A stretch of 64,000 bases of DNA from Patescibacteria group bacterium (GCA_041671645.1 JBAZBD010000001.1:735234-799233), one strand, 5' to 3'; counted from the stretch's first letter, positions 2,244 to 48,757 are shown. The notes: generated from the sequence alone by a model not told the origin. Numbers and translations are program-made.

Positions 2244-2640
2244 AAAATCCTTTGTAAATTAACAAAAATGGCAGTCTCTTGGGTACTCCGCACGGTTACG
2301 GAAAGAGGCTGCCATTGCTGGCTCCAAAATTTTACCGTTTTAGTATGTACCCACTTAACATTCTAATACTTATTCATTCATCTTTTAACACCTCCTTCAC
2401 AATTTCTTTATTATTTTTATATAAACCATACAAAAATCTAGCCCAGTCCTTGAGATGTGCTTCTTTCTCGACTTTCGTCATTTCTAGATTTTTGTTTGTT
2501 AATGGTTTCATTTTGAATAAATAAGCCCCTTAGTAAGAGGCAACTTAATCTAAGAGGCTTATTAAAAGAAATTTTATTGCCTACAAAAATATCCTCTGAG
2601 AAGAGGATATAGCATTGTATGGGAGTGCAAAAATATAGTA

Positions 2641-3282
2641 TCAGTGTGGATCGGCGTGATCTTTTATCTCCAATGAGAGGGTAACGTTACCACTATTTGA
2701 AGAGATTTCATACTTATTTAAGGAGGTTCTTTTTCTAATTTCAGCAACAGTATCTTTGATCTTTCTCGTATTCTCTGCTTTGCACCCTGGTGCTTTGGCA
2801 TCTATAAGTCCCAATAATCTGAGAGCTCTGGCTCTTGTTATCTTTTTACTTTTCACCAACGCTCCGAAAAGTAGACTTGTATTTTTGCCTTCTGTGAGCC
2901 TGAATTTCTTACCTTTTATATTTCCCCTGCCTGTTACCGACGAGTACCAGCAATCAGCATCAGAAACAATGCTATTGTTCTGTTCAGTCTGACTAATACC
3001 GTTAAACATATCTAAGTATTCACTATAAAATTCCTGGTACACATAAATTACATAATTCCTGGAGCTACAATAATTAAACGGCTCCATTATCTCAATTATC
3101 TTTAGAGCACCACGTTCCTCAAGCCATTTTAGTACGATTTCAAGATCACTTATTGGAAATTCAGGATTTTCTTTTGAGAATTGTATATCAGAAATTATTA
3201 TCGTCTCTTTTTCCTCAAGAGTTCGACATTCATCTATATGATTCAGCACTATCCCAATTTTTTTATATGCAGCTATGCTCAT
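2641..3282 (-). CDS. Hypothetical protein (island cargo), possible C-terminal HTH
   Basis: 213 aa ORF, AT-rich, no recognisable catalytic motif. Basic C-terminal segment ITRARALRLLGLIDAKAPG. Confidence 0.5.
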   Translation of the reverse strand: MSIAAYKKIGIVLNHIDECRTLEEKETIIISDIQFSKENPEFPISDLEIVLKWLEERGALKIIEIMEPFNYCSSRNYVIYVYQEFYSEYLDMFNGISQTEQNNSIVSDADCWYSSVTGRGNIKGKKFRLTEGKNTSLLFGALVKSKKITRARALRLLGLIDAKAPGCKAENTRKIKDTVAEIRKRTSLNKYEISSNSGNVTLSLEIKDHADPH

Positions 3283-3564
3283 TTGTTGCCTCTTTTTTCT
3301 ATTTATTGAAAATATATCCTATTTGTGGCAATATTAAAATAAGTTGAAATTTATTTCAGCTTAATACAATCTATATGTGCCTAACCCCAAATAGTAATAT
3401 TTGGGTATGGTATTAAATCCTCTACTAAATGAAGACGGCTTTCCGTCCATACTTTTAGTAGAGGTCTATATTCGAAAGGATATAGGGTAAGTTCCGAAAG
3501 GGGCTGCCGTGGCGGAAGGCCATTTTTGTATTCAATTTTAGTTCTAAAATAATTAAGGAGGCAA

Positions 3565-3750
3565 ATGCCAAAAGAAGAAAAAGAGAAGAAACCTGTTTGG
3601 AAAAAGTGGTGGTTCTGGGTCATCGTCGTGATTGTTATTATATGTTTGATTCCCAAGGGCTCAATAGAGAAAGCTACGAACAGCCTTGATTCAACAAACG
3701 ATAAACTCAAGGGCACATCAGATCAGATTCAAACTGAGCTTAAGAAATAG
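3565..3750 (+). CDS. Small membrane protein (1 TM)
   Basis: Strong RBS AAGGAGG 7 nt upstream; hydrophobic core WWFWVIVVIVIICLI; 61 aa. Confidence 0.5.
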   Translation: MPKEEKEKKPVWKKWWFWVIVVIVIICLIPKGSIEKATNSLDSTNDKLKGTSDQIQTELKK

Positions 3751-3762
3751 AAAGGAAATCTT

Positions 3763-4425
3763 ATGGCTGTATTCTTTACGTTAATGCTATTCGTTTCAAT
3801 TGTTGTTCTAGTTCTTGGATTGATTAGTCCAAAAATAATCAATAAATTCATCAAAAATGAGAAGAAACACTTCGATCGCAAAAAGGTGGGGAAGGTTTTC
3901 GGCTTGATTACTATTGGATTCTTTATTTTGACTATGATTTCAATTATCGTTCCAGCCGCTAAAGAAGATGCTAAAAAGGAATCGATCAGCCAAGACAAAT
4001 CCGTTTCTGATAATCTTTGGATTGCCTTGGATAATGCGACCAACTCAAGGAATGGATATTCGGTCGATTATTACGCATTGAATAAAAGCGTGATGATTAA
4101 AAAAGAGCCTGACACTGCTTGGGACGACAATACTTTTGTTATGACTGCTTATCAAACATATGTTAAGTTTGGCAAAACAGCCTTCAGTATTGAAGGTGTA
4201 GACTCAGTTAGTTTTATCTGGTGGGCAAATATGATTGATAGCAAGGGGCAATCAGAAAAATCAAAAGGGATTCAGATTGAGATGACAAAAGAACAATTTT
4301 CTCAATTCAACTGGGATAATCTCGTTGGGAGAAACATATATGAACAGATGCAACCATATCAATGGATTCATACAGGAATATTAAATAAGTTGAACAAGGA
4401 TAAACTAATTTTGCTTACTGTGTAG
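3763..4425 (+). CDS. Membrane protein with two N-terminal TM helices and an extracytoplasmic domain
   Basis: 220 aa, RBS present, two hydrophobic helices then a soluble domain. Tightly follows the 3565 ORF. Confidence 0.6.
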   Translation: MAVFFTLMLFVSIVVLVLGLISPKIINKFIKNEKKHFDRKKVGKVFGLITIGFFILTMISIIVPAAKEDAKKESISQDKSVSDNLWIALDNATNSRNGYSVDYYALNKSVMIKKEPDTAWDDNTFVMTAYQTYVKFGKTAFSIEGVDSVSFIWWANMIDSKGQSEKSKGIQIEMTKEQFSQFNWDNLVGRNIYEQMQPYQWIHTGILNKLNKDKLILLTV

Positions 4426-4427
4426 TA

Positions 4428-4961
4428 CTATACTTTTAATATTTTCTTCTCGTTCATAATATTTTTCATACTTTCTTCTCGCTCGTACGCTTTAATAATC
4501 ACATCGAGCATTCTTTGTTGTTTTCTATAATATTCTAAAGGATTTTGATCAATCAATTCTTGCTCTTGCTGGTTTCTCATCCCTTGCTCTTTAATCTCGG
4601 CCTCTTTTCGTTCGATGATTCTCAACTTATCTTCTGGGTATGATTTCATATGAAGTTCGTGGAGTTTGCCGACAAGCGTGCCTATTGTGTATGCCGTTTT
4701 CGAATCCATCAAACCATTGGCATCTACTTGTCTGGTTCTGCTTATAGTGTCTTTTAAGAGCATCTCAAGGCCTTCTGAAGTTGATAGATCAATCGGATCG
4801 ACAACAACCTTAGCAACGCTCTTATTGGCTAACCCACCTATCTTCACGGCTCGGAGATGTTTTTTCTTACTGGCTGGATCGTGAGAAAAACAAAATTTGC
4901 TTCCGCTTACCGAGAAAGCCCCACACTGCTTACCGTCCGATTTTGTATATTGGCATTGCAT
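4428..4961 (-). CDS. Zinc-finger (C-x9-C...C-x2-H) plus coiled-coil protein, third gene of the AAA/S8 operon
   Basis: N-terminal CQYTKSDGKQCGAFSVSGSKFCFSHD; C-terminal charged coiled coil. Starts 28 nt downstream of the S8 gene stop on the same strand. Confidence 0.55.
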   Translation of the reverse strand: MQCQYTKSDGKQCGAFSVSGSKFCFSHDPASKKKHLRAVKIGGLANKSVAKVVVDPIDLSTSEGLEMLLKDTISRTRQVDANGLMDSKTAYTIGTLVGKLHELHMKSYPEDKLRIIERKEAEIKEQGMRNQQEQELIDQNPLEYYRKQQRMLDVIIKAYEREESMKNIMNEKKILKV

Positions 4962-4988
4962 AAATAATTAGAATGACTAGTCAAGTTA

Positions 4989-7358
4989 CTAAGCTTCCGC
5001 AGACACTACTTCAATCGGCAAAGAAATTTCAGTTGCAACCTCGAATTGGCCAGTCTGAATTATCGATTCCCTAATATTATTTGATCCCTCTTTGTCGATT
5101 ATGGTGAGCACAAAAGAATAGGGCTGTTTGATATTACCTGGACTACCTAAGTTTTGTTTTTCATATTCTGAATAAACATTCATACTAATGTTGATCTGGA
5201 GAAACGGAGTTTTAACCGCCATTTTTTGACCCTGGAAATGAATTACATTAAATTTCTGATTTTTATAATTCTCCCAATTCCATTGACCATTTTTGGGGTT
5301 GACGTTATCAGGCTTATTCCCTTCTTCCCCATTTTCATCGATTGTAGGCTCCATTATTCGCACCGAAGCACCTACTTCAATCATATTATAGTTTTTTGGG
5401 AAATTTTTATTTGTTGGAGGATTATAGACAAGTGTAAAAATAAATCCAATATTTTTACCAACAAGATTCTGAGGCAATTCAATATTTAGCTTATGCTTCT
5501 TGTTATCATTCTCCAAAATATCACAATACATAAAGGTTACCTTGTTTTCGTCGTCATCCTGAATCGGAATTGACCAGTCTGGTATTCCAAAACCATATGC
5601 CTTTTTAACTGAATCGCTTGTTATCCGTGTTTGTTCTCTTAACGAAGTAGAGTGTATTAATAAAGATTTAACAAGATTAACACGATTCTTCCTTATATCT
5701 AGAACATTGGGAATATTGGAATTAATTATATAGTCATATAGAAGAGCGGATTGTCTTGCAATAAGTGGAGCACTAAAGCTAGTACCAATATCTTTAGACA
5801 GGCCATTCATATCTATTCCTTCAACACCAAAGGAATTGCTCGATGCGGTCAAAAAAGGTCTCTGGTATGAGCCTGAGGGATCTATTTTAATATTTCCACC
5901 GCTTTCTACTAATTCTGGCTTTTTGATACCTTCTGCATATCCGCTTTTTCCGTATCCGCCCCTTCGTGTAAATGGCGATGGGAGGCCTTTTCCACAATAA
6001 CAATCAGCTGACGCATCAGCAGCAATCGATCCAACAGTCAGTACATTCAATGCATCTCCAGGCGAGGCAACAATAGCAGAAAGATTACAATCATCAAAAA
6101 TTTCTTCATATTTATTGCCAGGATAACAAGTATTATTTCCAGCACTACAGACAATAAGAATATCTTTTTCTCTTGCAATTTCATCCACCTTCGCAGTCAA
6201 ATCACTTACATCATCTTCTTCTATGCTTTTATTTTCATTAATTGATAGATTATATACAAAGACATCCGAGTGTCGATTTGCGACATTCTCAATTGCTTTT
6301 GTTATCTTAGTAGCATCTTTGTAATTTGAGTTAGGGCCAAAAAGAATCTGAGAATCGATTATTTTAGATATGGGAATCAGTCTCCTGTTGGCAGATATTT
6401 GCCCAGTGATATTATCGCCGAATAGAAGTCTACTTGCGACAAAAGTGCCGTGATTATTGTCTATGCCCTGATTGGCAAGCAGAGAATTATATTGAAGTGA
6501 TACAAATTTATCTATTAATGGATGCTTGATACCACTATCGATAACGGCAACAGTTTGCGATGTATCCACCTCGCCTAGTACAACTTCACTTAAATCAACA
6601 CCGCTAATACTCCTCTGCAGATTAAACTTTGGCGAGATTTTAATTTTATTGATAAAATTAAAACTTATTTCTGATAATAAGCTGTTTATTTCCGCTACAT
6701 ACAATTCAGCTCCATACAGCAGATTATAAACGAAAAAGTCTTCATCGAGCATAAACACTTTTCCAGAACCCAACCGCTGAGATAATTTTTGATATATTTC
6801 ATTATATTCTGGCCTTAGCCTATCTTGAGTTATTTCAATAATACAGTCTATTTTTTCGTTAAATACATTATCACAAAGTTCACGAATAGCCCTGTCCATT
6901 CTTATATCATTGCTGGTATTAACATCTTGGATACTTGAAATCGCATATACCTCTCTGGAGAATTTAACTCTTTTTCTCGAGCCTCCCTCCTTTGCAATTT
7001 CAAAAGAACACGAATCCATAACTTCTCGTAATTTTTTGAAATCACTTTTCTTACCAGCTAATTTATAAGTAAATTCATCTCTTGATGCCACAACATCCAA
7101 ATTTGATTCTTTCCATAGTTCGCTTGGCCTATTTGACTTAGACCTAACCTCATCAATCAATTTTATTTCTGCATAAACTTTGTCGTCTTCTGCTAGCGGC
7201 AAATCCACAATACTTTGAGCTGAATTTTTCAGGTCTCTAATGCGTATCCGATAATCAGCAACATTATCGAAGCCACACCAAAATTTTTCCCAGTAAGCTC
7301 CGAAACCCGTTTTTTGCTCTTTATCAACTTTTTTCTTTGGAATTAAAATATTGCTCAT
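4989..7358 (-). CDS. S8 family subtilisin-like serine peptidase (IetS-like)
   Basis: Catalytic triad motifs in order: VAVIDSGI (Asp), HGTFVAS (His), GTSFSAPLIA (Ser). 789 aa with a long N-terminal extension. Start overlaps the stop of the upstream AAA gene by 4 nt. Confidence 0.85.
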   Translation of the reverse strand: MSNILIPKKKVDKEQKTGFGAYWEKFWCGFDNVADYRIRIRDLKNSAQSIVDLPLAEDDKVYAEIKLIDEVRSKSNRPSELWKESNLDVVASRDEFTYKLAGKKSDFKKLREVMDSCSFEIAKEGGSRKRVKFSREVYAISSIQDVNTSNDIRMDRAIRELCDNVFNEKIDCIIEITQDRLRPEYNEIYQKLSQRLGSGKVFMLDEDFFVYNLLYGAELYVAEINSLLSEISFNFINKIKISPKFNLQRSISGVDLSEVVLGEVDTSQTVAVIDSGIKHPLIDKFVSLQYNSLLANQGIDNNHGTFVASRLLFGDNITGQISANRRLIPISKIIDSQILFGPNSNYKDATKITKAIENVANRHSDVFVYNLSINENKSIEEDDVSDLTAKVDEIAREKDILIVCSAGNNTCYPGNKYEEIFDDCNLSAIVASPGDALNVLTVGSIAADASADCYCGKGLPSPFTRRGGYGKSGYAEGIKKPELVESGGNIKIDPSGSYQRPFLTASSNSFGVEGIDMNGLSKDIGTSFSAPLIARQSALLYDYIINSNIPNVLDIRKNRVNLVKSLLIHSTSLREQTRITSDSVKKAYGFGIPDWSIPIQDDDENKVTFMYCDILENDNKKHKLNIELPQNLVGKNIGFIFTLVYNPPTNKNFPKNYNMIEVGASVRIMEPTIDENGEEGNKPDNVNPKNGQWNWENYKNQKFNVIHFQGQKMAVKTPFLQINISMNVYSEYEKQNLGSPGNIKQPYSFVLTIIDKEGSNNIRESIIQTGQFEVATEISLPIEVVSAEA

Positions 7359-8446
7359 TTTATATTATCCCTTAGTGTTGTATACGGCATCGATGTTATG
7401 TCAGATATTTCTTTAATGGAATACCCCTTGTCTTTTAGTAATTGACATACCTTATAAGATTGTTTTTTTTCGATTAAAGGCTTACTGGAAAAATCCAAAA
7501 TATTTTTCAATGCAAAAGTATTATCAATAATCTCAATCTTTTCCAAAATTGCTCTTTTTTTCATATGTATAACTATGTCCGAGATTGCCGATCCACTCAG
7601 CCCTTCTGTGAGATCTGCTAAGAGCTCAAAATCTAACTTATGTCTGAACTTATCAATAAATAGCTTTATTAATTGTTTCCTGGCTGGCTTGGAGGGCACT
7701 CCCAAACTGATTCTCAAAGGAAATCTTCTCCAAATGGCCGTATCCAGAAGTCCCTCGTGGTTTGTCGCTCCAATTATTATTGAATTTTGCGGAAAAGAAT
7801 CAATGTTTTGTAACAAAACTGTTACTATCCTCTTCAACTCTCCGAGCTCTTTCTCATCAGCTCTGTCTTTTGCAATAGTATCTATCTCATCAAGAAAAAT
7901 CAGAACTTCTTGTTTCTTTGCGATATCAAAAATATCTTTTATGTTTTTACCAGTTTTGCCTAGATAAGAAGAAATTAATTCATCTAATCTAACAAGGACT
8001 AATGGTAAATTTAATTTATTTGCTAAACCATATGCCAGCTTTGTTTTTCCTGTACCAGGAGGACCATAAATTAACAATTTATTAGTTGGACTTATACCAA
8101 AATCGCTTAATTTTATCCTATTTTCCCACTCTATTAGAAAATTCTTGATTTTTTTCTGATTCTCGATATCAAGTACAACCTCCTCTAGAAGAATCTTCGA
8201 TTCAATATATTCAACTAACGATTCGTTTTTTGATGAATATATCTGGTGATCGTTTTTTACCGATTGAAAAGAATACGCTTTTTTATCAGGGATTTTGGAA
8301 AGTAAATTTCTAAGCCGTCTGGAAACAATATTCTGACCCATTTTCTTTCTTTTCTCAATTTCTCCCTCAAGTATAGAAATGATTTTTTTATTATCGCTCT
8401 GAATAAAAGCACTGGCGATATCTTCAATAATTTCGACGCTTGACAT
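7355..8446 (-). CDS. AAA+ ATPase (classic-clade AAA, IetA-like)
   Basis: Walker A GPPGTGKT; Walker B IFLDEID. A Vps4/spastin-like segment SSYLGKTGKNIKDIF. 363 aa; translationally coupled to the S8 peptidase. Confidence 0.85.
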   Translation of the reverse strand: MSSVEIIEDIASAFIQSDNKKIISILEGEIEKRKKMGQNIVSRRLRNLLSKIPDKKAYSFQSVKNDHQIYSSKNESLVEYIESKILLEEVVLDIENQKKIKNFLIEWENRIKLSDFGISPTNKLLIYGPPGTGKTKLAYGLANKLNLPLVLVRLDELISSYLGKTGKNIKDIFDIAKKQEVLIFLDEIDTIAKDRADEKELGELKRIVTVLLQNIDSFPQNSIIIGATNHEGLLDTAIWRRFPLRISLGVPSKPARKQLIKLFIDKFRHKLDFELLADLTEGLSGSAISDIVIHMKKRAILEKIEIIDNTFALKNILDFSSKPLIEKKQSYKVCQLLKDKGYSIKEISDITSMPYTTLRDNIK

Positions 8447-8579
8447 ATTCGTACCCTCCTCCGTTATTTTTACCTCAATTACATTGTAAATTTATTAGTA
8501 CGAAAAATCAACCGATGAACAATTCCGTATTTTATTCTTGGTAAGCAAAAATAATATCCATCACAAATATTCAATGATC

Positions 8580-9536
8580 TTATGGATTAGGAGTTCTTTC
8601 GATTATTTCATCTAGCAACATATATGTATAAATTATTATTTTTTGAGCAACTTCCTTTGTAATTGAGTGTTTATCTCCTTTTGCTTCCAGTCTTGTAACC
8701 GAATCAATCAACTCACATACATATTCGGACGTATCACGTGCTACAGAGTCCTCTATTTTTTTCCCTTTCATAAACTCTTTAATCCTCAGCCTATAGTGTT
8801 CAGTATCAAGCTTAATCACCTTACCATCTCTTGTTGTTGTCGTTTCGTTAGAGGGAGGATAAATAATATCAGCAATTCTTATAATTATTCTTCTGCAACC
8901 ACTTGCGACATTCGACCAGTCTGGTTGATTATCAGAATTGGCAGATTTGTAAGCCGTGACTAATTCTTGCAAAATTTCTGGCACTTTGTTCTTCATCTCT
9001 TTCTCGACAATGTCTCTAATCTCAGAAAAGATGTCTGAAGCAGCCTCACTAAAACTTAACGCATTATATACATCCGCTATAAAACAATATAGCCGTCCTC
9101 TAATACGAGACAGAATTGACTGACTTGTCCTAATAGATTCAGAAATTGTATTTCTTTCAAATGCATTACTATGTGGCACATAAGTTGAATACTGGCTTGA
9201 TGACTGAAATGATATATTTGGGTCATTGGCTACGCTTAATCTAATTTTCAGAGTATCTATGGTGTTCTCAAGTACCTCAACGTGATCTAGTCTATAGATA
9301 ATTTCTTTACCAACCGTCCAGTATCTACCATTTGCTACTATATTGTCCTTGTCACCAGCAACATATTGGTTAAGAGTCCCAGTAATCTCTTTTTCGATCC
9401 AAATTTGATTCTTCGTGTCGTTCACAAGCCGAGCCAACAGAGCACCTTTTTGCAAAAGTATGCTAAGTTTACTACCACCAAAGGTTTCCAAAATCTCAGT
9501 AGCCAAAGTTAGTGCTTTTTTGTGATGGTCTTTCAT
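8580..9536 (-). CDS. Hypothetical protein (island cargo; possible abortive-infection-type protein)
   Basis: 318 aa, no recognisable motif. Located in the AT-rich island upstream of the AAA/S8 operon with its own upstream region. Confidence 0.55.
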   Translation of the reverse strand: MKDHHKKALTLATEILETFGGSKLSILLQKGALLARLVNDTKNQIWIEKEITGTLNQYVAGDKDNIVANGRYWTVGKEIIYRLDHVEVLENTIDTLKIRLSVANDPNISFQSSSQYSTYVPHSNAFERNTISESIRTSQSILSRIRGRLYCFIADVYNALSFSEAASDIFSEIRDIVEKEMKNKVPEILQELVTAYKSANSDNQPDWSNVASGCRRIIIRIADIIYPPSNETTTTRDGKVIKLDTEHYRLRIKEFMKGKKIEDSVARDTSEYVCELIDSVTRLEAKGDKHSITKEVAQKIIIYTYMLLDEIIERTPNP

Positions 9537-9834
9537 AATTTTAAGAATAAACCCTGATGTTCATTATTACAAGTTATTATTAAGTGCTAATACTGTCTGG
9601 GATCTACTGAACTTAAAGCAAGTTTATATTTCCCATATTCAGAATGAAGAACTTCTCGCCATCGCCTCGATTCTTCAATGATAAAATGCAAATTTTTACG
9701 CACCAGTACCACCAAAAAATGATCAGATTTATTTTGGTCTTTTTTTGTTGCATAACATCTTCAGGCATTACTCAGTTTGCTCATTTATAATCATCTTAGG
9801 GTCGATAAGATAATAATAAATAAGAAGGAGAATT

Positions 9835-10299
9835 ATGAAGAACAAGAAGATTTTACTTTCCGTGACCGCGCTGACACTGGCCGTAGCTGGTGCAGTCTGG
9901 TACGGCGGGAACAAGGTACTAGCGGCAAACGGTGTTGGACATGACGCAATGGTCTCGACATTATCAGAGAAACTTGGTGTGCCAGAAGACAAAGTTACCG
10001 CGGCATTCGATTCGATCGAAACACAGCGACAGGCAGACAGAGTAGCAGAGCGAAAAAACCAGCTCGATAAAGCTGTCTCGGCCGGCGTGATTACACAGGA
10101 GCAGGAAGATAAGCTGGTAGCGAAGCACGCGGAGCTTCAAGCAGACAGAGAAAAGGAACGCACGGAGCTTGAGCAATGGTACAAGGATAACGGTATTGAT
10201 CAGAGCAAGCTGTCTGAATATACCGGACGCGGAGGAATAGGTATGGGGCAAGGTATGGGTAGAGGAATGGGCGGCCAAGGGCATATGGGCGGAATCTAA
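9835..10299 (+). CDS. Secreted protein with signal peptide and Gly/Met-rich C-terminus
   Basis: RBS AAGGAG; N-terminal MKNKKILLSVTALTLAVAGAVW signal-like sequence; GC ~50%. Confidence 0.6.
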   Translation: MKNKKILLSVTALTLAVAGAVWYGGNKVLAANGVGHDAMVSTLSEKLGVPEDKVTAAFDSIETQRQADRVAERKNQLDKAVSAGVITQEQEDKLVAKHAELQADREKERTELEQWYKDNGIDQSKLSEYTGRGGIGMGQGMGRGMGGQGHMGGI

Positions 10300-21139: not shown

Positions 21140-21937
21140 TTACAGTTTATTTTGGTGTCCGATCAGGGTGCCGACTTCTTCTCCTCGGGCAAACCGAAGA
21201 ATTGTGTTGTCGTCTGGCCCGGCGATGACAGTGAGGAACCCTTCGTTGGCTGCATTCACAGCTTGGAGAATCTTCTTGTTCATGCCGCCTTTGCCAGTAG
21301 TCTGACAATCTGCCAAGAGATTAAATGGGATGTCGTCACGGTCAATCTCGAGGTATTGGATCGCGTAAGGATCAGTCACTGGATTGCCAGTAAATACAGC
21401 ACCAGATTTTGTGATCAAGATCAGAGCCGAGGGCCTGATGATACGGCCAAGGAGCACTGCCAAATGATCGTTTTCGCTAACGCCAAGATTCATCGCCTTG
21501 ATCTCCTCGTCGGAGACGATATCGTTCTCGTTGATGATCGGCACGATGTTTCGAGCGAAACACTCCTCGATGTTGGTCAGAATCGTGCCATCTTCGGCTG
21601 TCAAATTGGCATAAGTGAGCCAAAATGGTGCGATCTCGTGGCCAAAGTTGGAAAACGCCGATCCCCAGAAATTGAGCAGATGCCTAGTCCCAATGCCAGA
21701 CAAAATCTTCTCTGGAATCGGAGCGGCATCTTGACCGATATCGGTCATGCGCTCTTTGCCTGCCTGAATCGCTCCCGAAGAAACGATAGCGACCTTGATG
21801 CCCTGAAGCATCAGAACAGCGACTTGTCGAGCGATATTAGCAAAAATTTCTGCTGATAATCGGCTCATTTCTCCCATCAAACTTTCGCGCCCAAATTTGA
21901 GCAACAGTATTTCTCCAGACTGCATTACTCGTCTCAT
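21140..21937 (-). CDS. proB: Glutamate 5-kinase (ProB, lacking the PUA domain)
   Basis: Block alignment to E. coli ProB: KFGRESL, VAIVSSGAIQAGKE, NIVPIINENDIVSDEEIK, LILITKSGAVFTGNP, TGKGGMNKKILQA. Start at MRRVMQ with RBS GAGGGGG. Confidence 0.75.
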   Translation of the reverse strand: MRRVMQSGEILLLKFGRESLMGEMSRLSAEIFANIARQVAVLMLQGIKVAIVSSGAIQAGKERMTDIGQDAAPIPEKILSGIGTRHLLNFWGSAFSNFGHEIAPFWLTYANLTAEDGTILTNIEECFARNIVPIINENDIVSDEEIKAMNLGVSENDHLAVLLGRIIRPSALILITKSGAVFTGNPVTDPYAIQYLEIDRDDIPFNLLADCQTTGKGGMNKKILQAVNAANEGFLTVIAGPDDNTILRFARGEEVGTLIGHQNKL

Positions 21938-23118: not shown

Positions 23119-23166
23119 CCTCAACAGAAAAATGGTCTAGCAGTGCAAGACCATCCAATTTACCAG
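23119..23166 (-). promoter_or_regulatory. Copy 2 of the 47-nt hairpin/U-tract leader element (stem ATGGTCTAGC/GCAAGACCAT, one mismatch), between tRNA-Arg and the 22031..23107 gene
   Basis: 45 of 47 nt identical to 21948..21995. Also positioned as a terminator for the upstream tRNA-Arg(CCG). Confidence 0.5.
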
Positions 23167-23195
23167 TAATCTGAGCTGAAGTCAATCAATATCGT

Positions 23196-23271
23196 TGGTA
23201 CCCGCGAAGGGAATTGAACCCCCGACCTCTCGGACCGGAACCGAGCGCTCTATCCACTGAGCTACGCGGGC
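23196..23271 (-). tRNA. tRNA-Arg (anticodon CCG)
   Basis: Cloverleaf from the minus strand: GCCCGCG/CGCGGGT acceptor, D-arm GCTCAGTGGATAGAGC, anticodon loop TTCCGGT, T-arm GGGGGTTCAATTCCCTT, encoded CCA. Confidence 0.85.
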
Positions 23272-23282
23272 AAATTATAATG

Positions 23283-23332
23283 ATCCACTGTCAGCCAGAG
23301 GCTGATCGGCCTTTGGCCGAAGCTACGCGGGC
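23283..23332 (-). pseudogene. Partial tRNA-Arg 5' copy (positions 1-12 and 13-20) split by a 30-nt double-hairpin insert, 11 nt upstream of the intact tRNA-Arg(CCG)
   Basis: Minus strand reads GCCCGCGTAGCT[TCGGCCAAAGGCCGATCAGCCTCTGGCTGA]CAGTGGAT. The flanks are identical to tRNA positions 1-20. Confidence 0.5.
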
Positions 23333-23393
23333 ATACCAAAACAAGACACCATCCATTTATACTTTAGAACTTGATAACTTTCAACTAATAGCG

Positions 23394-38234: not shown

Positions 38235-40211
38235 GTTGCGTCCTGAAACAAATAGATTCTTCGGTTTAAATCCGTAAAGCGCCAAACTGCTGAAGATCAC
38301 TATAATTGAAACTCCGACGTCGGCGAAGATGGCAAAAGCCAAGTTGCTCAACCCTGATAAGGCTAGGATTACAAACAGGAACTTAATTGCCAATGCCAGG
38401 CCGATATTAAATTTGATTGTTTGTCTCACTTTTTTGCCAAGCACTATTAAAAATGGAATCTTGCCAATATTATCATCCATGATTGCAATATCGGCGTTTT
38501 CTATCGCCATATCCGAGCCGACTGACCCAAGTGTGATGCCGACATTTGAAATAGCCAGAGAAGGAGCGTCATTGATGCCATCACCAACCATGGCAACACG
38601 AGAGTATTCCTTTTTCAAATTTTGGACTTGTGTAACTTTATTTTCAGGAAGAAGAGATGAATATACTTTACTAAGGCCAATATTGCTAGCAACATATCGG
38701 GCCGTACTTTCATTATCTCCAGTTAGCATAATAGGAGTAATACCCGCTTGTTTTAGGAAGGAGATTAGTGGCTTGCTCTCGTTCCTGATTGTATCCTCGA
38801 TAGCGATAACGCCCTCGATATGGGTTTTATTGGCTACAATAATTGTAGTCTTGCCTTCTTTTTCAAATTTATCAACTGCTTTTCTTGTCTGTTCGTCAAT
38901 CTTAATTTCATTCTCAACAAATGATAAATTGCCCAGGCAAGATGTTGTCTTGCAAATTGAACAATGGCCGATAATACCCTTGCCGGAAAGCGATTTGAAA
39001 TCAGTAGCTGGCAGCACAGTCACGCCCAGCTCTCGCGCTTTGTCCAGTATTCCTTTAGCCAATGGATGACCCGAATGAATCTCTAGTCCTGCAGCGCAAG
39101 CAAGAATCTCCTTCTCACTGTATCCATTGAATGTCACAATATCAGACACTCGAATTTCGCCAGTCGTCAAAGTTCTAGTCTTATCAAAGGCAATGGCTTT
39201 GATTTTACCGAGCTCCTCTAAATATTTTCCACCTTTAATAAGTATCCCCTGCCTGTTGGCGTTACCAAGAGCAGAGAACACAGCAATCGGAGTAGAGATA
39301 ACCAAGGCACAAGGGCAAGAGATAACAAGCAAACTCAAGGCCTGAATAAACCAAGTATTGAAAGGTAATCCTAGAAAAACCACCGGAATTATTACGATAA
39401 GAGATGCAATAACCATAACTGCCGGAGTATAATATTTTGCAAATCTCTCAATAAACTCCTGGGATTTTGACTTGTTCTTATTTGCACTTGCTGTCATCTC
39501 GATAATTTTGGCGATAGTTGAATCACCTGATTTTTTCATTACCTTTATTTCTAGCGAACCATCAATATTGACTGTGCCGGCATAAACCAGATCATTCATT
39601 CCTTTGGTTTCCGGGATAGGCTCGCCCGTAATGGTTGCTTCGTCGACCAGAGAACTGCCAGATACAATAACACCGTCAAGCGCAATAGTATCACCTGGTT
39701 TAACGATAATAATATCGCCAATATTAATATCCTCGATCGGAGTTTTATCTTCATCGCCCCTTTTTAAAACTGTTTTAGGAGTTTTTTGAATTAATTCCTC
39801 AAGAGCTTTTTTGCTTTTCTTGATTCCAATTTCTTCAAGAGTCTCAGCCAGGGCAAAGAGAACGACAATTGTGACCGCTTCTTCGAATTGTCCAAGATAG
39901 AGAGCGCCAAAAACTGCGATGGTCATCAATAGATTGATACTTGAGAATTTTAGCTTCAAAAGACTTTTGATGCCGCTGACGAAGACATCTCTACCAAAAA
40001 CAATTAGAAGAATGATAGAAATCGGCAGCTCGATAAACAAAGGTATTTTTACTGATAGTAAGGACAAGATCTCCATCGGCACTATGATGGCAATCGAAAT
40101 TAAAAGCAATACGAACTTTTTGTTTTTCCAGATAGAATTGATTTCTTGTGCCTCTTGTTTTCTTGAGCAACAGTCATCGTTGCAATAATTATCGTTTTTT
40201 TGTTTTTGCAT
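38193..40211 (-). CDS. Heavy-metal translocating P1B-type ATPase
   Basis: CPC in TM6 (SCPCALV); phosphorylation site FDKTRTLT; TGDN; GDGINDAP hinge; N-terminal Cys cluster CNDDCC. Confidence 0.85.
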   Translation of the reverse strand: MQKQKNDNYCNDDCCSRKQEAQEINSIWKNKKFVLLLISIAIIVPMEILSLLSVKIPLFIELPISIILLIVFGRDVFVSGIKSLLKLKFSSINLLMTIAVFGALYLGQFEEAVTIVVLFALAETLEEIGIKKSKKALEELIQKTPKTVLKRGDEDKTPIEDINIGDIIIVKPGDTIALDGVIVSGSSLVDEATITGEPIPETKGMNDLVYAGTVNIDGSLEIKVMKKSGDSTIAKIIEMTASANKNKSKSQEFIERFAKYYTPAVMVIASLIVIIPVVFLGLPFNTWFIQALSLLVISCPCALVISTPIAVFSALGNANRQGILIKGGKYLEELGKIKAIAFDKTRTLTTGEIRVSDIVTFNGYSEKEILACAAGLEIHSGHPLAKGILDKARELGVTVLPATDFKSLSGKGIIGHCSICKTTSCLGNLSFVENEIKIDEQTRKAVDKFEKEGKTTIIVANKTHIEGVIAIEDTIRNESKPLISFLKQAGITPIMLTGDNESTARYVASNIGLSKVYSSLLPENKVTQVQNLKKEYSRVAMVGDGINDAPSLAISNVGITLGSVGSDMAIENADIAIMDDNIGKIPFLIVLGKKVRQTIKFNIGLALAIKFLFVILALSGLSNLAFAIFADVGVSIIVIFSSLALYGFKPKNLFVSGRNSNEAHYEPIPGGE

Positions 40212-40221
40212 GCCTCACTCC

Positions 40222-40584
40222 TTATTTCTCAAGACAGTTGTGTTGGACAGCCTTGTCTATTTTAGTTTTTGGTTTTCTTTTAAGTAGTTTATTTAACTTA
40301 GCTTCATTTTCTTTCAATACACCCCTGTTTAGATGGTGAACACTAAAATATCCACGCTTATGCTCGCTTAAAACTCCAGCTTCCTTGAGTTTGCCAAGGT
40401 GATGGGAAACCAAATTTTGGGGGAGATTTAAAGCTTCGCTAATATCACAGACACATTTACAATCATGCGAAAGTAGCGTCAGAATCTTTAATCTGTTCGG
40501 ATCAGCGATAACTTTGAGAAACTTACTGATATTCTCAATCTGACTCAAATCTTCGGTATTTAAGTAATCCATTATTTTATCCAT
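40222..40584 (-). CDS. ArsR/SmtB family metalloregulator
   Basis: HTH with a metal-sensing Cys pair (CKCVCDISEAL) and LVSHHL; directly upstream of the P-type ATPase. Confidence 0.8.
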   Translation of the reverse strand: MDKIMDYLNTEDLSQIENISKFLKVIADPNRLKILTLLSHDCKCVCDISEALNLPQNLVSHHLGKLKEAGVLSEHKRGYFSVHHLNRGVLKENEAKLNKLLKRKPKTKIDKAVQHNCLEK

Positions 40585-40670
40585 ATCAATTTATATTGAT
40601 ATAAATATATCACAAAGAAAGAACTTGCGCAACAATATTATGAGTTTTTGGTTGGGATAGCTTGAATTAG

Positions 40671-40967
40671 TTAATCCCCAAAATCAAAGAGATCACCCAG
40701 AAATCCGCTTCTTTTCTTCTTCTTGTAGCTATCATGACCTTTGTAATATTCATTTTCTTTGCGGCGGTCTTCATGCTGATGGTCATATGATACTCTAGGA
40801 GTCTCGTTCTGCTGGATTCTATTAGATGAATCCTGACTTGATCTCTCTATGATCTTATCTAGCTCTCCTCGATCAAGCCATACTCCGCGGCACTGAGGAC
40901 AATAGTCAATTTCAATCCCCTGGCGATCGCTCATTACTAAATCTATGTTGCATAATGGACATTTCAT
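40671..40967 (-). CDS. Zinc-ribbon protein (CPLC...CPQCRGVWLDRGEL type)
   Basis: Two CxxC pairs and a GxWLDxGEL motif; charged His-rich tail. Confidence 0.55.
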   Translation of the reverse strand: MKCPLCNIDLVMSDRQGIEIDYCPQCRGVWLDRGELDKIIERSSQDSSNRIQQNETPRVSYDHQHEDRRKENEYYKGHDSYKKKKRSGFLGDLFDFGD

Positions 40968-41049
40968 TTTTTAATCCTTTTTAAGTTAATTAGATTGGTT
41001 GCGGTAATATTCTTTATTGTTCTACATTTCTATCCTTTCGACTCAACAT

Positions 41050-41970
41050 TTACTTGACCAACACACCTTTATAGACACGGTAAGGTTTTGGGCCAACCAA
41101 CGTTTTCCCGTTGATAAAAACTGTTGGAGTACCATAAAGATCAGCGTCGCTCATTTGCTCTTTTTGCTTTTCTAACTCTTTCTTCGTTGAATCGCTTGTT
41201 GCACACTCATTAATTGTTTGAGGATTCATCTGGTACTTGGTTGTAAGCTCGTTAAGATATTCAGGCTTGAGCAAATCTTCCTTTTTTGATGCAAACAACT
41301 TGTCATTCAAATCCCAAAATTTGTCAGGATAGTTTTTGCTCGCGCAGTAAGAAAAATTTGTCAAAGTATCATTTGGATCTTTGGTCGGGAAATGAATAAA
41401 GGTTAAACTGCTTTTTTCTTTCTCAACTAGCTTCTTTACGATAGGGTAAGATTTTCGACTATAGTCACAGTTGTAGCAGCCTATAAAAACGATGTTATTT
41501 TTACTCTCTATTTTCTTTGAAGGGAATGCCGTGAGATCAATCTTGCTTTGATCTATACTCTCTGCGGTGTGTTCCTTAGCACTACACGTTTTGTTTTCAG
41601 CGGAAATTTGGTTATTGCCTCCAGTAGGATCAAAGACACAAAATCCGCTTTTGTTTAGGCCATTGCAACTGCCGTATTTGTAATAATTATAGCCGCCCTT
41701 AACAACATAAAATGTGCTTGCTATCATTAACATGAATAAGACAAATGAGAACAGCTCAAAATAGCGGTTTAAAATTTTAGCCATGAACGCAGATTTTGTT
41801 AGCATTCCACCAACTAATTTGCCTTTAACTTTTTCTTTAAAGCCTGTGTTGCAAGGCCTAAAAGTAGCTTTTCTAAAAACACAATCTAGTGCCTCCCTTG
41901 CCAGCTGGCGGTGAGTTGCACTAAAAAGTCCGAGTATAGAAAATACGATTAATGCGATTATACATGCCAT
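41050..41970 (-). CDS. Membrane thiol-disulfide oxidoreductase: N-terminal polytopic domain (VKOR/DsbB-like, tentative) fused to a thioredoxin-fold CxxC domain
   Basis: N-terminal TM helices with loop Cys pairs. C-terminal IGCYNCDY CxxC plus thioredoxin-like ...YGTPTVFING. In an operon with SufS-like and DsbA-like genes. Confidence 0.45.
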   Translation of the reverse strand: MACIIALIVFSILGLFSATHRQLAREALDCVFRKATFRPCNTGFKEKVKGKLVGGMLTKSAFMAKILNRYFELFSFVLFMLMIASTFYVVKGGYNYYKYGSCNGLNKSGFCVFDPTGGNNQISAENKTCSAKEHTAESIDQSKIDLTAFPSKKIESKNNIVFIGCYNCDYSRKSYPIVKKLVEKEKSSLTFIHFPTKDPNDTLTNFSYCASKNYPDKFWDLNDKLFASKKEDLLKPEYLNELTTKYQMNPQTINECATSDSTKKELEKQKEQMSDADLYGTPTVFINGKTLVGPKPYRVYKGVLVK

Positions 41971-43175
41971 TACAAAATCCTTACTATATTTTTAATTTGT
42001 TTAATTAAGGTTTCGGCTTCTGCTAAGGTGTTATAGAAGTATGTTGAAATTCTAATCACGCCTTTGATTTCCTTGTCTGAGAACCACGGATGGACACACA
42101 GCTGACCTGAGCGAATAGCAATATTTCCAGAATTCTCTAATAGTTGAGCGATATAATGCGGATCAGCGCCCTCGATATAAAAGGAGATGATTCCGCTTCT
42201 TTTTTTTGGCTCGGCGGGTCCGATCAACCGTAGGTTTGGCAAATTTATTAAATTCTCTGTTATATATTTATTTAAGATAAGATTTTGCTTCTCGATGTTT
42301 TCCATTCCAATAGAATTTATATAATCAAGCGCCGCCCCAAACCCAAAAATTCCTGAGTAATTCTGTATGCCCGCTTCAAATCTCTGTGGCGACGGGAGAA
42401 GCTCATAATCCGTATAACTTGCGCTGTTTACCGTTCCACCTCCGATCACAGATGAGACAAAGTTTTCAATAATCTCTTTTTTAATATACAGAATACCTAT
42501 TCCTGTCGGCCCCAGCATTTTGTGAGCCGAAAATACTAGAAAATCTACACCTAGTTTTTTGACATCGATTCTTCGGTGGGTAGCTGCCTGTGTAGCGTCT
42601 AGTAATACCAGTGAATTATATTTATGAGCCAGTTCAACTATTTCTTTGACTGGATAGGTTACTCCATCCAGGTTCGAAGTATATACCAAGGAAACAAGTT
42701 TAATGTTTCCTTGGTTTTTTTCTAGTTGTGATTTATAGTCTCCCAAGTCAAATTCACCATTGCTAGCCGTTTTGGTGATCAGATGCTGAATTTTGCTATG
42801 TTTTGCTAATCTTACCCACGGCAGAAAATTGGAGTTGTGCTCTTTATCAGAGGTTAAGACGATATCGCCAGCTTTGAAGTTAAAAGAGTTAGCAACAAAA
42901 TTTATGCCCTCGGTCGCATTTTTTACAAATATCACCTCATTAGAATTATTTGCATTTATAAACTTCGCGGTCTTTTGTCTTACTTTTTCACACTTTTCGC
43001 CCACGACCTGACTCAGCTTGTAGCTGCCTCGATCGCAGAAAGGAAATTCCCTATAAAATTGTGAGACTGCCTCAATTACCGAGTTGGGCTTCAGAGTTGT
43101 GCAAGCATTATCAAAATAGATAAGCTTTGAATCTGACAGTATCGGAAAATCTTGGCGAGTCTTTTCTAGGTTCAT
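41970..43175 (-). CDS. Cysteine desulfurase (class V aminotransferase, SufS/NifS family)
   Basis: PLP-lysine motif FSAHKMLGPTGIG; catalytic Cys region GQLCVHP; 401 aa. Confidence 0.8.
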   Translation of the reverse strand: MNLEKTRQDFPILSDSKLIYFDNACTTLKPNSVIEAVSQFYREFPFCDRGSYKLSQVVGEKCEKVRQKTAKFINANNSNEVIFVKNATEGINFVANSFNFKAGDIVLTSDKEHNSNFLPWVRLAKHSKIQHLITKTASNGEFDLGDYKSQLEKNQGNIKLVSLVYTSNLDGVTYPVKEIVELAHKYNSLVLLDATQAATHRRIDVKKLGVDFLVFSAHKMLGPTGIGILYIKKEIIENFVSSVIGGGTVNSASYTDYELLPSPQRFEAGIQNYSGIFGFGAALDYINSIGMENIEKQNLILNKYITENLINLPNLRLIGPAEPKKRSGIISFYIEGADPHYIAQLLENSGNIAIRSGQLCVHPWFSDKEIKGVIRISTYFYNTLAEAETLIKQIKNIVRIL

Positions 43176-43903
43176 TTTACGTCCTCAAGCAGCGGATTTA
43201 TCTTTGCCTTCATTTGCTCTAGAGATAGAGCGCCTGCAAGCTTTTCAGTCTTTCCTTTGCTATCAATAATAAATGTGCCAGGAGTGCCTGTAACTCCGAC
43301 TTTTTCGCCAGATTCAAGATCAGATTTTACCTTATCCGCAAATTTACCGTCCTTTAGCGCCTTTTTGAATTTATCCATATCAAGGGACAATTCTTCAGCA
43401 TATCTGATTAAATCTTGTTCATTCAGCCCTGTTCCATCTGCCTGAGAATTTGCCGCTAGCTTATCGCTGTACTCCCAAAACTTGCTATGCTCGCCGGCTG
43501 CTTCCGTGGCTTCGGCTGCTTTTTGGGCGGTTTTATGAAAATCAAGTGGGAAATGGCGGTAAACCCAGCGAACTTTGCCCGGATAAAGATCAATAACTTG
43601 CTTCATTGTCTTATGAAATTTTACGCAATACGGGCATTGAAAATCTGAGTATTCTACGAGTGTAATCGGAGAATTTATTTCCCCATAGATCTGGTCTTTA
43701 TCAGTAATCGTAAGTTTTGGTCCGGTCTCATTAACTGATTGCAAAGAATCATTTTCTGCATTTTTAGCATTTGACGATCCATTCTTAGAGATTAAAACGA
43801 CTGCTCCTACAATGACAACAACGATAATTAACAAGAATATATAGATAGCATTATTATTTTTTGAATTCACAAAAGCTCCTTTGTTATTAAGTAATTTAAA
43901 CAA
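43172..43903 (-). CDS. DsbA-like thiol:disulfide oxidoreductase (CPYC), membrane-anchored
   Basis: EYSDFQCPYCVKF active site; paralog of 23991..24650. Confidence 0.7.
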   Translation of the reverse strand: MFKLLNNKGAFVNSKNNNAIYIFLLIIVVVIVGAVVLISKNGSSNAKNAENDSLQSVNETGPKLTITDKDQIYGEINSPITLVEYSDFQCPYCVKFHKTMKQVIDLYPGKVRWVYRHFPLDFHKTAQKAAEATEAAGEHSKFWEYSDKLAANSQADGTGLNEQDLIRYAEELSLDMDKFKKALKDGKFADKVKSDLESGEKVGVTGTPGTFIIDSKGKTEKLAGALSLEQMKAKINPLLEDVK

Positions 43904-43911
43904 ATAGAGAT

Positions 43912-44313
43912 TTAGAGGTAGAGTTTTGGCCTTAACCTGCCGTCAGAAAATGCTTGGAGCAAATAATCGAACAATTTTTGAAAGAAATATTTTCTTGTGT
44001 CTTTAATGTGACTTGGTTTAAGCGTAATGATTATATAAATGGCAGTTAACGGTGAGATTATTGACAGAAAAGATAGTGAGAAAATATCTTTAAAGCTAAC
44101 GTTCCTTAAATTAAATGCTTTTTCACTAAGGTGCTGGCTTAAACTTTCCCCGAGGCAAACTGACCGGCCGCATTGTTGGCTACCGTTATCAGTACAAAGT
44201 CCAGGCACACAATGACTAAGAGATAGAAACAAAAAAATGACCACAGCCAAAACGGCAAGCACCATTAGATATTTAGCAAAACTATCTTTAATAAGTGTGA
44301 TCAACATAACCAT
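43912..44313 (-). CDS. Cys-rich small membrane protein
   Basis: 133 aa, two TM segments; CVPGLC and CGRSVC pairs. Confidence 0.45.
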   Translation of the reverse strand: MVMLITLIKDSFAKYLMVLAVLAVVIFLFLSLSHCVPGLCTDNGSQQCGRSVCLGESLSQHLSEKAFNLRNVSFKDIFSLSFLSIISPLTAIYIIITLKPSHIKDTRKYFFQKLFDYLLQAFSDGRLRPKLYL

Positions 44314-44349
44314 ATTCTATTGTTTTTGGGAGTGCTTGGCAACCAGTAC

Positions 44350-44400: not shown

Positions 44401-44410
44401 GACGAAGCGG

Positions 44411-48755: not shown

Positions 48756-48757
48756 AA

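Follow-up and report, generated by a model that had tools for sequence, protein, structure and literature searches.

Split tRNA copies interrupted by hairpins beside working tRNA genes of a Patescibacteria genome: possible relics of in-place gene replacement

Introduction

How do fragments of a tRNA gene, broken apart by small hairpins, come to lie directly beside an intact copy of the same gene? The question is raised by a 64,000-nt stretch of a Patescibacteria (CPR) metagenome-assembled genome (MAG), hereafter the window, in which three tRNA genes are accompanied by such fragments. The original prediction, made from the sequence of the window, saw in them a recurrent architecture. Here we describe the three loci, follow the architecture into related genomes, and ask which of the two copies is the newer, how the hairpins behave and what kind of event could have left this arrangement behind.

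Results

Three split tRNA copies in the window

ARAGORN and Rfam identify nine tRNA genes and a tmRNA in the window, and a match to LOOT RNA is also present. Beside three of the tRNA genes (Arg(CCG), Lys and Glu) the split structures are found base for base as originally described. On the strand of tRNA-Arg(CCG) the order is native leader, first relic block, two hairpins, second relic block, spacer and tRNA, with the following features:

23356-23384, minus strand: native promoter of tRNA-Arg(CCG), upstream of the relic (TTGAAA at 23384-23379, a 17-nt spacer, TATAAA at 23361-23356)
23321-23333, minus strand: Arg relic block 1, T plus tRNA positions 1-12 (GCCCGCGTAGCT), a 13/13 exact repeat of 23260-23272
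23291-23320, minus strand: Arg insert of 30 nt at tRNA position 12/13, two tandem 15-nt hairpins with perfect 6-bp stems
23283-23290, minus strand: Arg relic block 2, tRNA positions 13-20 (CAGTGGAT), an exact repeat of 23252-23259
23272-23282, minus strand: AT-rich 11-nt spacer, cattataattt, from the Arg relic to the working tRNA
23196-23271, minus strand: working tRNA-Arg(CCG) (ARAGORN; Rfam, 64.5 bits)
23162-23192, minus strand: Arg trailer segment complementary to leader 23277-23306 (RNAfold helices)

The two hairpins of the Arg insert, TCGGCC-AAA-GGCCGA (TCGGCCAAAGGCCGA) and TCAGCC-TCT-GGCTGA (TCAGCCTCTGGCTGA), resemble each other. The Lys and Glu copies flank a two-gene unit on the plus strand:

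53263-53291, plus strand: promoter-like site of the Lys-Glu unit, TTGCCA-17-TACTAT, upstream of the Lys relic
53306-53317, plus strand: Lys relic block 1, AT plus tRNA positions 1-10, a 12/12 exact repeat of 53393-53404
53318-53361, plus strand: Lys insert of 44 nt at position 10/11
53362-53377, plus strand: Lys relic block 2, tRNA positions 11-26, 16/16 exact
53378-53394, plus strand: AT-rich 17-nt Lys spacer, the final 2 nt of which are part of the repeat
53395-53546, plus strand: working tRNA-Lys(CTT) (53395-53470) and tRNA-Glu(TTC) (53472-53546), 1 nt apart (ARAGORN, Rfam)
53542-53585, plus strand: first terminator after tRNA-Glu
53594-53644, plus strand: conserved Glu trailer element, 88-90% identical to that of the related locus L009
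53603-53613, plus strand: Glu relic block 1, linear positions 56-66
53644-53653, plus strand: Glu relic block 2, linear positions 66-75 (GGGGCTACCA)
53652-53691, plus strand: second terminator, after the Glu copy and of a design like the first

The Lys copy had been given as blocks 1-10 and 11-26 around a 44-nt insert, 18 nt ahead of the gene; blocks and insert stand, but the spacer measures 17 nt. Its insert contains tandem ACCC-GAA-GGGT hairpins (53318-53328 and 53331-53341), GCC-CTT-GGC and then GGCTCCTTTGGCC, and includes a tandem 13-nt duplication. It does share a GGCCAAAGG core with the Arg insert, in the opposite orientation, as had been noticed. The Glu trailer is made up of a hairpin GGAATC-GAA-GATTCC, a relic block, a linker and a second hairpin, CCGTCC-GTA-GC-TTAA-GC-GAA-GGATGG; the first of these hairpins is formed by an inverted T-loop copy (GGAATCGAA, 53594-53602) together with a direct T-loop copy. 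Between the two Glu relic blocks lie 29-30 nt, and the second block is missing from the L009 copy of the trailer.

Copy and gene are separated by 11 (Arg), 17 (Lys) and 56 nt (Glu), plus the inserts. ARAGORN and Rfam recognise none of the copies as a tRNA, in keeping with the original view that they are not functional tRNAs. The repeats reach upstream of tRNA position +1, by 1 nt for Arg and by 2 nt for Lys, and the copied unit was therefore DNA or a precursor and not the mature tRNA. Since the native promoters lie upstream of the relics, the 5' relics are probably part of the transcribed leader, judging by the promoter motifs. A TATAAT in the Arg spacer was considered as a promoter and rejected, as it ends 2 nt before +1 and lacks a -35 element, so that it cannot serve the tRNA.

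Chance similarity, which the original prediction had named as one alternative, does not account for these copies. A split collinear pair of at least 8 + 8 nt occurs at 3 of the 18 real tRNA flanks of the window, while only 11 of 2000 shuffled sets, each consisting of all 18 flanks shuffled, contained at least one such pair; homologous architecture is moreover found in unrelated MAGs from other studies. An assembly artefact might be suspected because the Logan contigs of SRR18595301 end inside the 25-nt 5' segment common to three tRNA-Arg genes. Those contigs, however, come from an independent assembly and carry the Arg module (L084) and the Glu trailer (L092) in identical sequence. We regard the chance of either explanation as negligible, and conclude that split partial tRNA copies are a real, recurrent feature of these genomes.

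Recurrence in related genomes

The closest relatives of the window are labelled Candidatus Berkelbacteria. By RNase Y the nearest relatives are 63-86% identical and belong to MAGs labelled Candidatus Berkelbacteria, Patescibacteria or Saccharibacteria, and the protein encoded beside tRNA-Arg has a handful of homologues only, all in uncultured 'bacterium' MAGs. An origin in Lactobacillales, to which the LOOT RNA match seemed to point, was dismissed, as RNase Y and the proteins encoded nearby assign the window to Berkelbacteria-like Patescibacteria. Two leads were set aside: the distant homologues of a 150-aa neighbour are not syntenic with the tRNA, and the relative of a radical-SAM neighbour is not syntenic either. 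At 4-fold degenerate RNase Y sites, identity between the window and its relatives is 26-39% (30% for L009) and thus saturated, which means that non-coding similarity between these genomes is either constrained or recent.

Our survey took in 49 tRNA genes, in the window and 13 related loci (about 16 loci of the lineage overall, with 64 kb of the source genome). Exact partial copies of at least 11 nt within 300 nt of these 49 tRNAs number 13 on the same strand versus 1 antisense, compared with 1 same-strand and 1 antisense match for 19 tRNAs in 68 unrelated loci. Their polarity is strict, with 5' relics always upstream, 3' relics always downstream and all of them on the tRNA strand. The recurrent architecture is thus borne out, and it reaches relatives and other tRNAs. 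A scan for tRNA fragments near tRNA genes, of the kind that had been proposed for the whole genome, finds recurrence beyond the window; no copies of the insert hairpins occur away from tRNAs in the 64-kb window and ~120 kb of relatives.

The relics take several forms. Upstream of tRNA-Lys in L007, for example, stand two tandem units of ~106 nt, each comprising positions 1-26, a 17-nt hairpin that replaces the anticodon arm, positions 42-52 and a spacer. In L010, tRNA-Gly is preceded by positions 1-24, a 39-nt hairpin insert, positions 25-35 and a 28-nt spacer, and positions 58-75 of tRNA-Lys are copied 112 nt downstream of that gene, amid GC-rich hairpins. L008 holds a copy of Glu positions 31-75 with a 16-nt palindrome in its T-loop, as well as a copy of Arg-CCT positions 57-77, and the native Arg-CCT terminator stands after this 3' relic, not after the working gene. 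In L013 a Glu 3'-end copy is found downstream of an inverted T-arm copy; inverted T-loop copies lie beside direct ones in the window, L013 and L008. The sequence before tRNA-Arg(CCT) in L011 runs GCCCCTGTAGCT, two hairpins, CAGTGGATA, agatattt, the last of these in the place of the window's Arg spacer, which in L086 is taken by actattcaatttatt. The split points of the Arg relic, 12/13 and 20/21, are identical in the window (Arg-CCG), L086 (Arg-CCG) and L011 (Arg-CCT). Comparison with relatives, also proposed at the outset, reveals modules in several of them (for instance at Arg-CCG in L086 and at Arg-CCT in L011), although the distribution is patchy and modules are missing at the same genes in L002, L085, L015 and L009.

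Nested copies and the identity of the newcomer

In the Arg-CCG ortholog of L002, with its promoter TTGAAT-17-TATAAA, the same leader runs straight into the intact tRNA, so that the window differs from it by a 61-nt indel. The old 5' part in the window is continuous with this native leader (orthologous to that of L002) and is followed by the spacer and the working gene; the same continuity is seen when L086 is set against L085 and L011 against L009.

L086 and L008 demonstrate that a working tRNA can lie nested within the broken remains of its own predecessor. The L086 locus reads native leader, GCCCGCGTAGCT, two hairpins, CAGTGGATC and spacer, then a complete tRNA-Arg(CCG), 18 nt, positions 22-76 of the old tRNA and a terminator. 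Its working tRNA-Arg(CCG) differs from the old copy in the acceptor stem (GCCCCCA/TGGGGGT), the anticodon stem and the T-stem alike, and the old 3' strand, CGCGGGT, matches the old 5' strand. At the Lys locus of L008, a new tRNA-Lys comes after old positions 1-17, and beyond it lie what is left of the old 3' part, in degraded form, and next a GIY-YIG gene; the new tRNA is bounded by a perfect 9-bp inverted repeat, CCCCGCACT/AGTGCGGGG. In the window, no old 3' part was found after tRNA-Arg(CCG) or tRNA-Lys, and no complementary tRNA halves were found elsewhere.

Allele comparisons point the same way as the leaders. Five relics that differ from their working copies (L086 Arg, L010 Gly, and Glu, Arg-CCT and Lys of L008) have the clade-typical allele, and the working copies have an unusual allele with a compensated pairing partner, which identifies the working copy as the newcomer. 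For example, the L086 Arg relic has the allele of the window and L002; the L010 Gly relic has the L013 allele and scores higher against tRNA-Gly of L013 and of the window than against tRNA-Gly of its own genome. The case of L011 is ambiguous, as both of its alleles are found in the clade. An unconstrained relic would be expected to drift faster than a working gene; the reverse is seen, and we therefore take the working copies to be replacements, the source of which could be other lineages or paralogous tRNA genes. Within the window, three tRNA-Arg genes with GCCCGCG acceptors have identical 5' ends of 25-26 nt and two have an identical 33-nt 3' end, which makes exchange among them plausible. 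Relics and working copies of the window are identical in sequence, and the events there must accordingly have been recent or local.

A hairpin component tied to tRNA flanks

Perfect GC-rich triloop hairpins reach a density of 1.09 per kb in DNA no more than 150 nt from a tRNA, versus 0.12 per kb elsewhere, a ~9-fold enrichment. TCT or AGA loops account for 5 of the 11 near-tRNA hairpins and for none of the 21 elsewhere. The Arg inserts at 12/13 in the window and L011 each have one AAA-loop and one TCT-loop hairpin, in swapped order, with compensatory differences in the stems and the loops kept; L086 has two different hairpins at the same 12/13 position. The two Arg hairpins are alike within each genome. 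In the Glu trailer every difference between the window and L009 falls in loops or linker, and in general the stems of near-tRNA hairpins are kept across species with saturated silent sites.

A covariance model built from the window and L009 copies of the trailer retrieved a related, antisense hairpin directly next to the CCA end of tRNA-Lys in L008 (E = 1e-4), as well as weaker copies in L009, and related hairpins recur near other tRNAs in other genomes. At the window inserts we found no terminal repeats or flanking target duplications and identified no transposase nearby. Rfam gave no matches for the inserts or for an element of L010 and L013 described below, and viral contigs gave none to the Arg module or to the second-hairpin motif of the Glu trailer. 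In all, the hairpins give the impression of a distinct component, conserved or self-maintaining, found in either orientation and tied to tRNA flanks.

Predicted folding of the Arg precursor

RNAfold predicts an Arg precursor in which the cloverleaf is enclosed by an interrupted helix of ~25 bp. The helix would pair the second hairpin, the 13-20 block and the spacer with the trailer, and the acceptor-strand copy would not be involved. With z = -4.3, leader-trailer complementarity at Arg-CCG is the strongest among 53 tRNAs tested. For the decoys of the original prediction, which might pair with the mature tRNA halves, this is the one feature at the RNA level that speaks in favour. The trailer segment overlaps a promoter-like site of the next gene (TTGACT-17-TAAATT, 23185-23157; promoter scan). 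As a general tRNA rule leader-trailer pairing was rejected because only a few of the 53 tRNAs stand out, and we therefore treat it as a lead and not as an explanation.

Discussion

Proposed in-place replacement of tRNA genes

The reading that we favour, at a probability of about one half, is that each split copy is a displaced relic of an older form of the tRNA gene beside it, left behind when that gene was rebuilt at its own locus. It starts from the polarity, nesting, recurrence and allele pattern of the relics and from the enrichment and conservation of the hairpins, and from these we infer the break, the donor and the joining chemistry. In the window and its Berkelbacteria-labelled relatives, a tRNA gene would repeatedly have been broken in or beside a loop; the break in Arg is in the D-loop (20/21), that in Lys falls where the D-arm ends (26/27), and Glu is broken in the T-loop. 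Incoming DNA would then have restored the gene where it stood, providing a fresh 5' or 3' part or an entire tRNA. The old 5' piece would remain on the native promoter, be transcribed in the leader and presumably be removed by RNase P, and the old 3' piece would remain between the newcomer's terminator and the native one. The most likely route to such a join begins with homologous pairing on one side, through the conserved body of the tRNA, and is completed by illegitimate joining on the other; alternatively, as for L086 and L008, insertion may have taken place at both ends of the newcomer. The donor might be the sister chromosome, a paralogous tRNA-Arg gene or another cell. The GC-rich triloop hairpins would be a second component, locally duplicated in either orientation, that occupies the relics and may arise by fold-back synthesis or as a small palindromic element. 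The adjacent inverted and direct T-loop copies agree with fold-back events at the break. The relics themselves would have no function.

Several observations weigh against in-place replacement. In the window relic and working copy are the same, so that purely local duplication may have been enough there, and replacement alone gives no reason why almost every relic holds a hairpin insert. No donor DNA, nuclease or recombinase was identified at the three window loci, and the strong conservation of some hairpins, taken up below, counts against it as well. A stronger version is doubtful though conceivable: an active tRNA-targeting replacement system in Berkelbacteria-like Patescibacteria, with cuts at fixed points of the D- or T-arm, incoming tRNA cassettes that often have altered acceptor stems, and hairpin elements travelling along. 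Free-standing GIY-YIG nucleases or selection for changed tRNA alleles could drive such a system which, if real, would be a previously undescribed selfish or defensive 'tRNA-in-tRNA' replacement.

Other explanations of the split copies

The hairpins invite a functional reading. The modules could be working parts of the tRNA precursor, namely processing stalks, insulators between folding units or extra terminators, with the tRNA-like pieces incidental or serving as pairing aids. The Glu trailer and the Arg double hairpin (window versus L011) are conserved far beyond what neutrality allows, with the changes confined to loops and linker in the former and compensated in the stems of the latter, so that the hairpins, at any rate, may have a function. 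The enrichment near tRNAs and the outstanding leader-trailer score of Arg-CCG fit as well, as do the T-run that gives the second hairpin of the L009 trailer a terminator-like appearance and the perfect inverted repeats that flank working tRNA-Lys genes, of 11 bp in L007 and of 9 bp in L008. Yet the modules are patchy at orthologous genes and leader-trailer complementarity is not general; the hairpin types occur in both orientations, which gives different RNA loops (AAA versus UUU, UCU versus AGA), and a leader containing an exact copy of the acceptor's 5' strand should impede folding. Perfect palindromes can, in addition, be kept by self-correction at the DNA level. We think it unlikely, on this balance, that precursor function explains the modules.

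Classical att-site duplication, by integrative elements that carried a replacement tRNA segment and were later almost wholly deleted, is a distinctly unlikely origin, although displaced tRNA fragments marking island ends are well known (PMC4383910, PMC9897764). Relic boundaries lie in or next to loops (T-loop 56-60 in four 3' relics, anticodon loop 31 and 35, D-loop 20), and the working gene has its own terminator with the native one left after the relic. L010 and L013, moreover, share a homologous element of ~75 nt between the tRNA and a copy of its own 3' end. The window also holds two low-GC islands with large serine recombinase genes; these genes overlap the tmRNA 3' end and the whole of tRNA-Arg(CCT) and are not at the three relic loci, and no displaced tmRNA or Arg-CCT 3' end was found at the far ends of the islands. 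As an att site would have it, each window copy is a same-strand direct repeat of a tRNA segment, the other copy of which is in an intact gene. The repeat is not continuous, however, being split by inserts of 29-44 nt in all three cases, and no ORF or integrase or recombinase gene lies between the copies at these loci. Among ~12 cases overall, the gap from relic to gene is only 10-120 nt, again with no integrase gene between, and the original statement that these are not simple att duplications is upheld. To our knowledge, 5' relics with D-loop boundaries do not correspond to any described integrase sublocation. The complete divergent tRNA between both old halves in L086 and L008 is something that a single crossover cannot yield; when worked by hand, a single-crossover integrase acting at 12/13 or 20/21 could place neither the hairpins between the blocks nor the L086 nesting.

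An attack on tRNA D- and T-arms by a mini palindromic mobile element or a homing endonuclease, with the hairpins as the element or its footprints and the partial copies as by-products of repair, would account for the insertion point 12/13 being identical in three genomes and two different Arg genes, for the same hairpin types in both orientations with local tandem copies, and for the inverted T-loop copies beside direct ones that fold-back repair at a break is expected to leave. Small GIY-YIG-only genes (Pfam PF01541, E about 3e-12; 72-85 aa, catalytic domain only) are in fact found inside the tRNA clusters of L008 and L013, one of them beside a nested relic. We nevertheless hold this to be improbable: dispersed hairpin copies, terminal repeats, target duplications and matches in viral contigs were all absent from the material searched, and the window has no GIY-YIG homologue. 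This is the mini-mobile element of the original prediction; the view of the copies as a scar left by a tiny element in a gene still in use is contradicted by the polarity, by the nesting in L086 and L008 and by the clade-typical alleles of the relics. Each of these three readings accounts for part of the data.

Implications

In-place replacement, if correct, would mean that tRNA genes in streamlined, mostly uncultured bacteria are turned over by replacement and not only by point substitution, that the footprints of replacement can be read directly in DNA, and that they can be used to trace gene transfer and recombination, two processes that are difficult to follow in this phylum. It would also carry a warning for annotation, in that leaders and trailers of Patescibacteria tRNAs hold tRNA fragments and conserved hairpins. 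Should the hairpins prove functional, they would constitute a novel type of RNA signal beside tRNAs, in bacteria whose RNase complement is reduced. Our results suggest that tRNA genes are often replaced in Patescibacteria and that these bacteria have an uncharacterised hairpin component.

Comparison with known systems

Interrupted tRNA genes are known from this phylum, as group I introns at 35/36 of Patescibacteria tRNAs (bioRxiv 10.1101/2025.07.03.662931; PMC13011429), and from archaea, as split and permuted tRNAs (PMC3978253). The likeness is that tRNA genes of the phylum are targets of insertion and that structured inserts interrupt tRNA sequence here too. Unlike introns, the present inserts measure 16-47 nt, have no ribozyme (no Rfam match) and lie at 10-13, at 24/25 or in the T-arm, not at 35/36. 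An intact tRNA stands 11-17 nt downstream, the interrupted copy is incomplete and no Rfam intron was matched; with an incomplete copy and an intact gene adjacent, no splicing is needed. Split or permuted genes are likewise not at issue, as complete canonical genes are present in the window.

In phage T4, the free-standing GIY-YIG homing endonuclease SegB sits in a tRNA cluster and can drive inheritance of the tRNA region (PMC2330249). The small GIY-YIG genes between tRNA genes of L008 and L013 recall this arrangement, particularly the one adjoining the nested tRNA-Lys relic; the proteins consist of the catalytic domain only, however, the window has none, and SegB homing leaves no nested relics. 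Small palindromic repeats, such as bacterial REP/BIME, Rickettsia palindromic elements and mitochondrial hairpin-forming elements (PMC2800124), share with the inserts their short GC-rich hairpins in an AT-richer genome, their tandem or inverted local copies in either orientation and their position inside RNA genes. They differ in that our units, of 13-35 nt, showed no dispersed family away from tRNAs in the 64-kb window and ~120 kb of relatives, and no associated transposase was seen. A non-exhaustive literature search returned no description of hairpin-interrupted relics within ~100 nt of a working gene, nor of tRNA-in-tRNA nesting in bacteria.

A further comparison is with plastid pseudo-tRNAs, in which homology-facilitated illegitimate recombination leaves partial tRNA duplications at the end-points of rearrangements (PMC4122936, PMC1940014). 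The likeness would lie in the tRNA body as homologous anchor, the illegitimate other end and the partial duplicates by intact genes; the plastid cases show neither hairpin inserts nor splits that recur at the same points. The displaced tRNA and tmRNA fragments that border genomic islands and prophages (Islander, PMC4383910; van der Gulik et al., PMC9897764) differ in that their copies are continuous and separated by 3-90 kb with an integrase between them, whereas ours lie 10-120 nt apart, are interrupted by hairpins, include many 5' relics between promoter and gene and comprise two whole-tRNA nestings. What they have in common with our copies is a same-strand partial copy beside a regenerated gene, boundaries near loops and a regenerated part that may differ from the original. 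The relics belong to the known phenomenon of tRNA gene fragments and are not a new kind of gene.

tRNA-Arg genes of the window

A direct repeat of ~17 nt, TAAAT(T)GGATGGT(G)TCTTG, brackets the tRNA-Arg(CCG) unit as a whole (23342-23359 and 23146-23162). Both copies contain a -10-like hexamer, which in one copy is part of the tRNA promoter and in the other is part of the promoter of the next gene. In two related loci, L085 and L086, the unit lies at the same locus in inverted orientation relative to the window, and the unit itself may be a movable or invertible cassette. Three tRNA-Arg isoacceptor genes of the window have end sequences in common:

23196-23271, minus strand, tRNA-Arg(CCG)
50275-50350, minus strand, tRNA-Arg(CCT)
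63901-63976, tRNA-Arg(TCT)

Their 5' ends (25-26 nt) are identical in all three, as is a 33-nt 3' end between CCT and TCT, and these identical ends suggest gene conversion among the isoacceptors. A G1-U72 wobble tops the acceptor stem in 3/3.

Separately, a 15-nt exact match to positions 22-36 of tRNA-Arg(CCT), GAGCGAAACACTCCT, was observed at 21553-21567 (plus strand; BLAST E = 0.005 within the window). It falls within coding sequence, at a distance of 1.6 kb from tRNA-Arg(CCG).

Serine recombinases and low-GC regions

Two large serine recombinase genes of the window overlap RNA genes, and each adjoins a low-GC region:

361-745, plus strand, tmRNA
681-2243, minus strand, large serine recombinase gene
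3378-3505, LOOT RNA
8580-9536, AbiTii-like gene
44857-44939, odd, low-scoring tRNA-Ser(AGA) (Rfam, 37 bits)
44988-47123, AAA/SMC-type ATPase gene
47387-48187, replication-relaxation-like gene
48758-50359, plus strand, large serine recombinase gene, the second of the two (533 aa)

The 3' end of the tmRNA shares bases with the C-terminal codons of the first recombinase gene, and beyond this overlap the sequence falls to 35% GC (~745-10000), a stretch that holds the LOOT RNA and the AbiTii-like gene and looks like an integrated island; a displaced 3' tmRNA fragment was sought at its far end and none was found. The second recombinase gene entirely covers tRNA-Arg(CCT) in antisense, and the low-GC region beside it (~40000-50350) carries the tRNA-Ser(AGA), ATPase and replication-relaxation-like genes.

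tRNA neighbourhoods in related loci

A conserved two-hairpin element of ~75 nt occurs in two related loci:

L010, 1086-1166, minus strand, beside tRNA-Lys
L013, 3176-3262, plus strand, beside tRNA-Glu

In both it separates the tRNA from a duplicate of the 3' end of that same tRNA, with the pattern GGGGTCGGGAAA...TTTCCCG...AGGAAGATA.TAG.AAACCGT.GGTTTCTA.AAGC (nhmmer E = 8e-6) and stems that differ by compensatory changes. The element had no match in Rfam and no copy in the window.

At the contig start of L004 (1-107), the 5' half of tRNA-Lys is joined to the 3' two-thirds of tRNA-Glu, a fusion called as a 77-nt tRNA-Glu by ARAGORN, which is either an assembly chimera at the contig end or a real deletion. 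The tRNA-Lys of L007 is exactly bracketed by perfect 11-bp complementarity, TTTTCCAGGTT / AACCTGGAAAA (2738-2748 and 2829-2839, minus strand); the two arms would form a leader-trailer stem or else constitute a terminal inverted repeat.

Small GIY-YIG genes (Pfam PF01541, E ~3e-12), encoding the catalytic domain alone, are also found among relatives' tRNAs:

L008, 3312-3569, plus strand, 85 aa
L013, 2577-2795, plus strand, 72 aa

Both are interposed between tRNA genes whose counterparts in the window are adjacent or nearly so.
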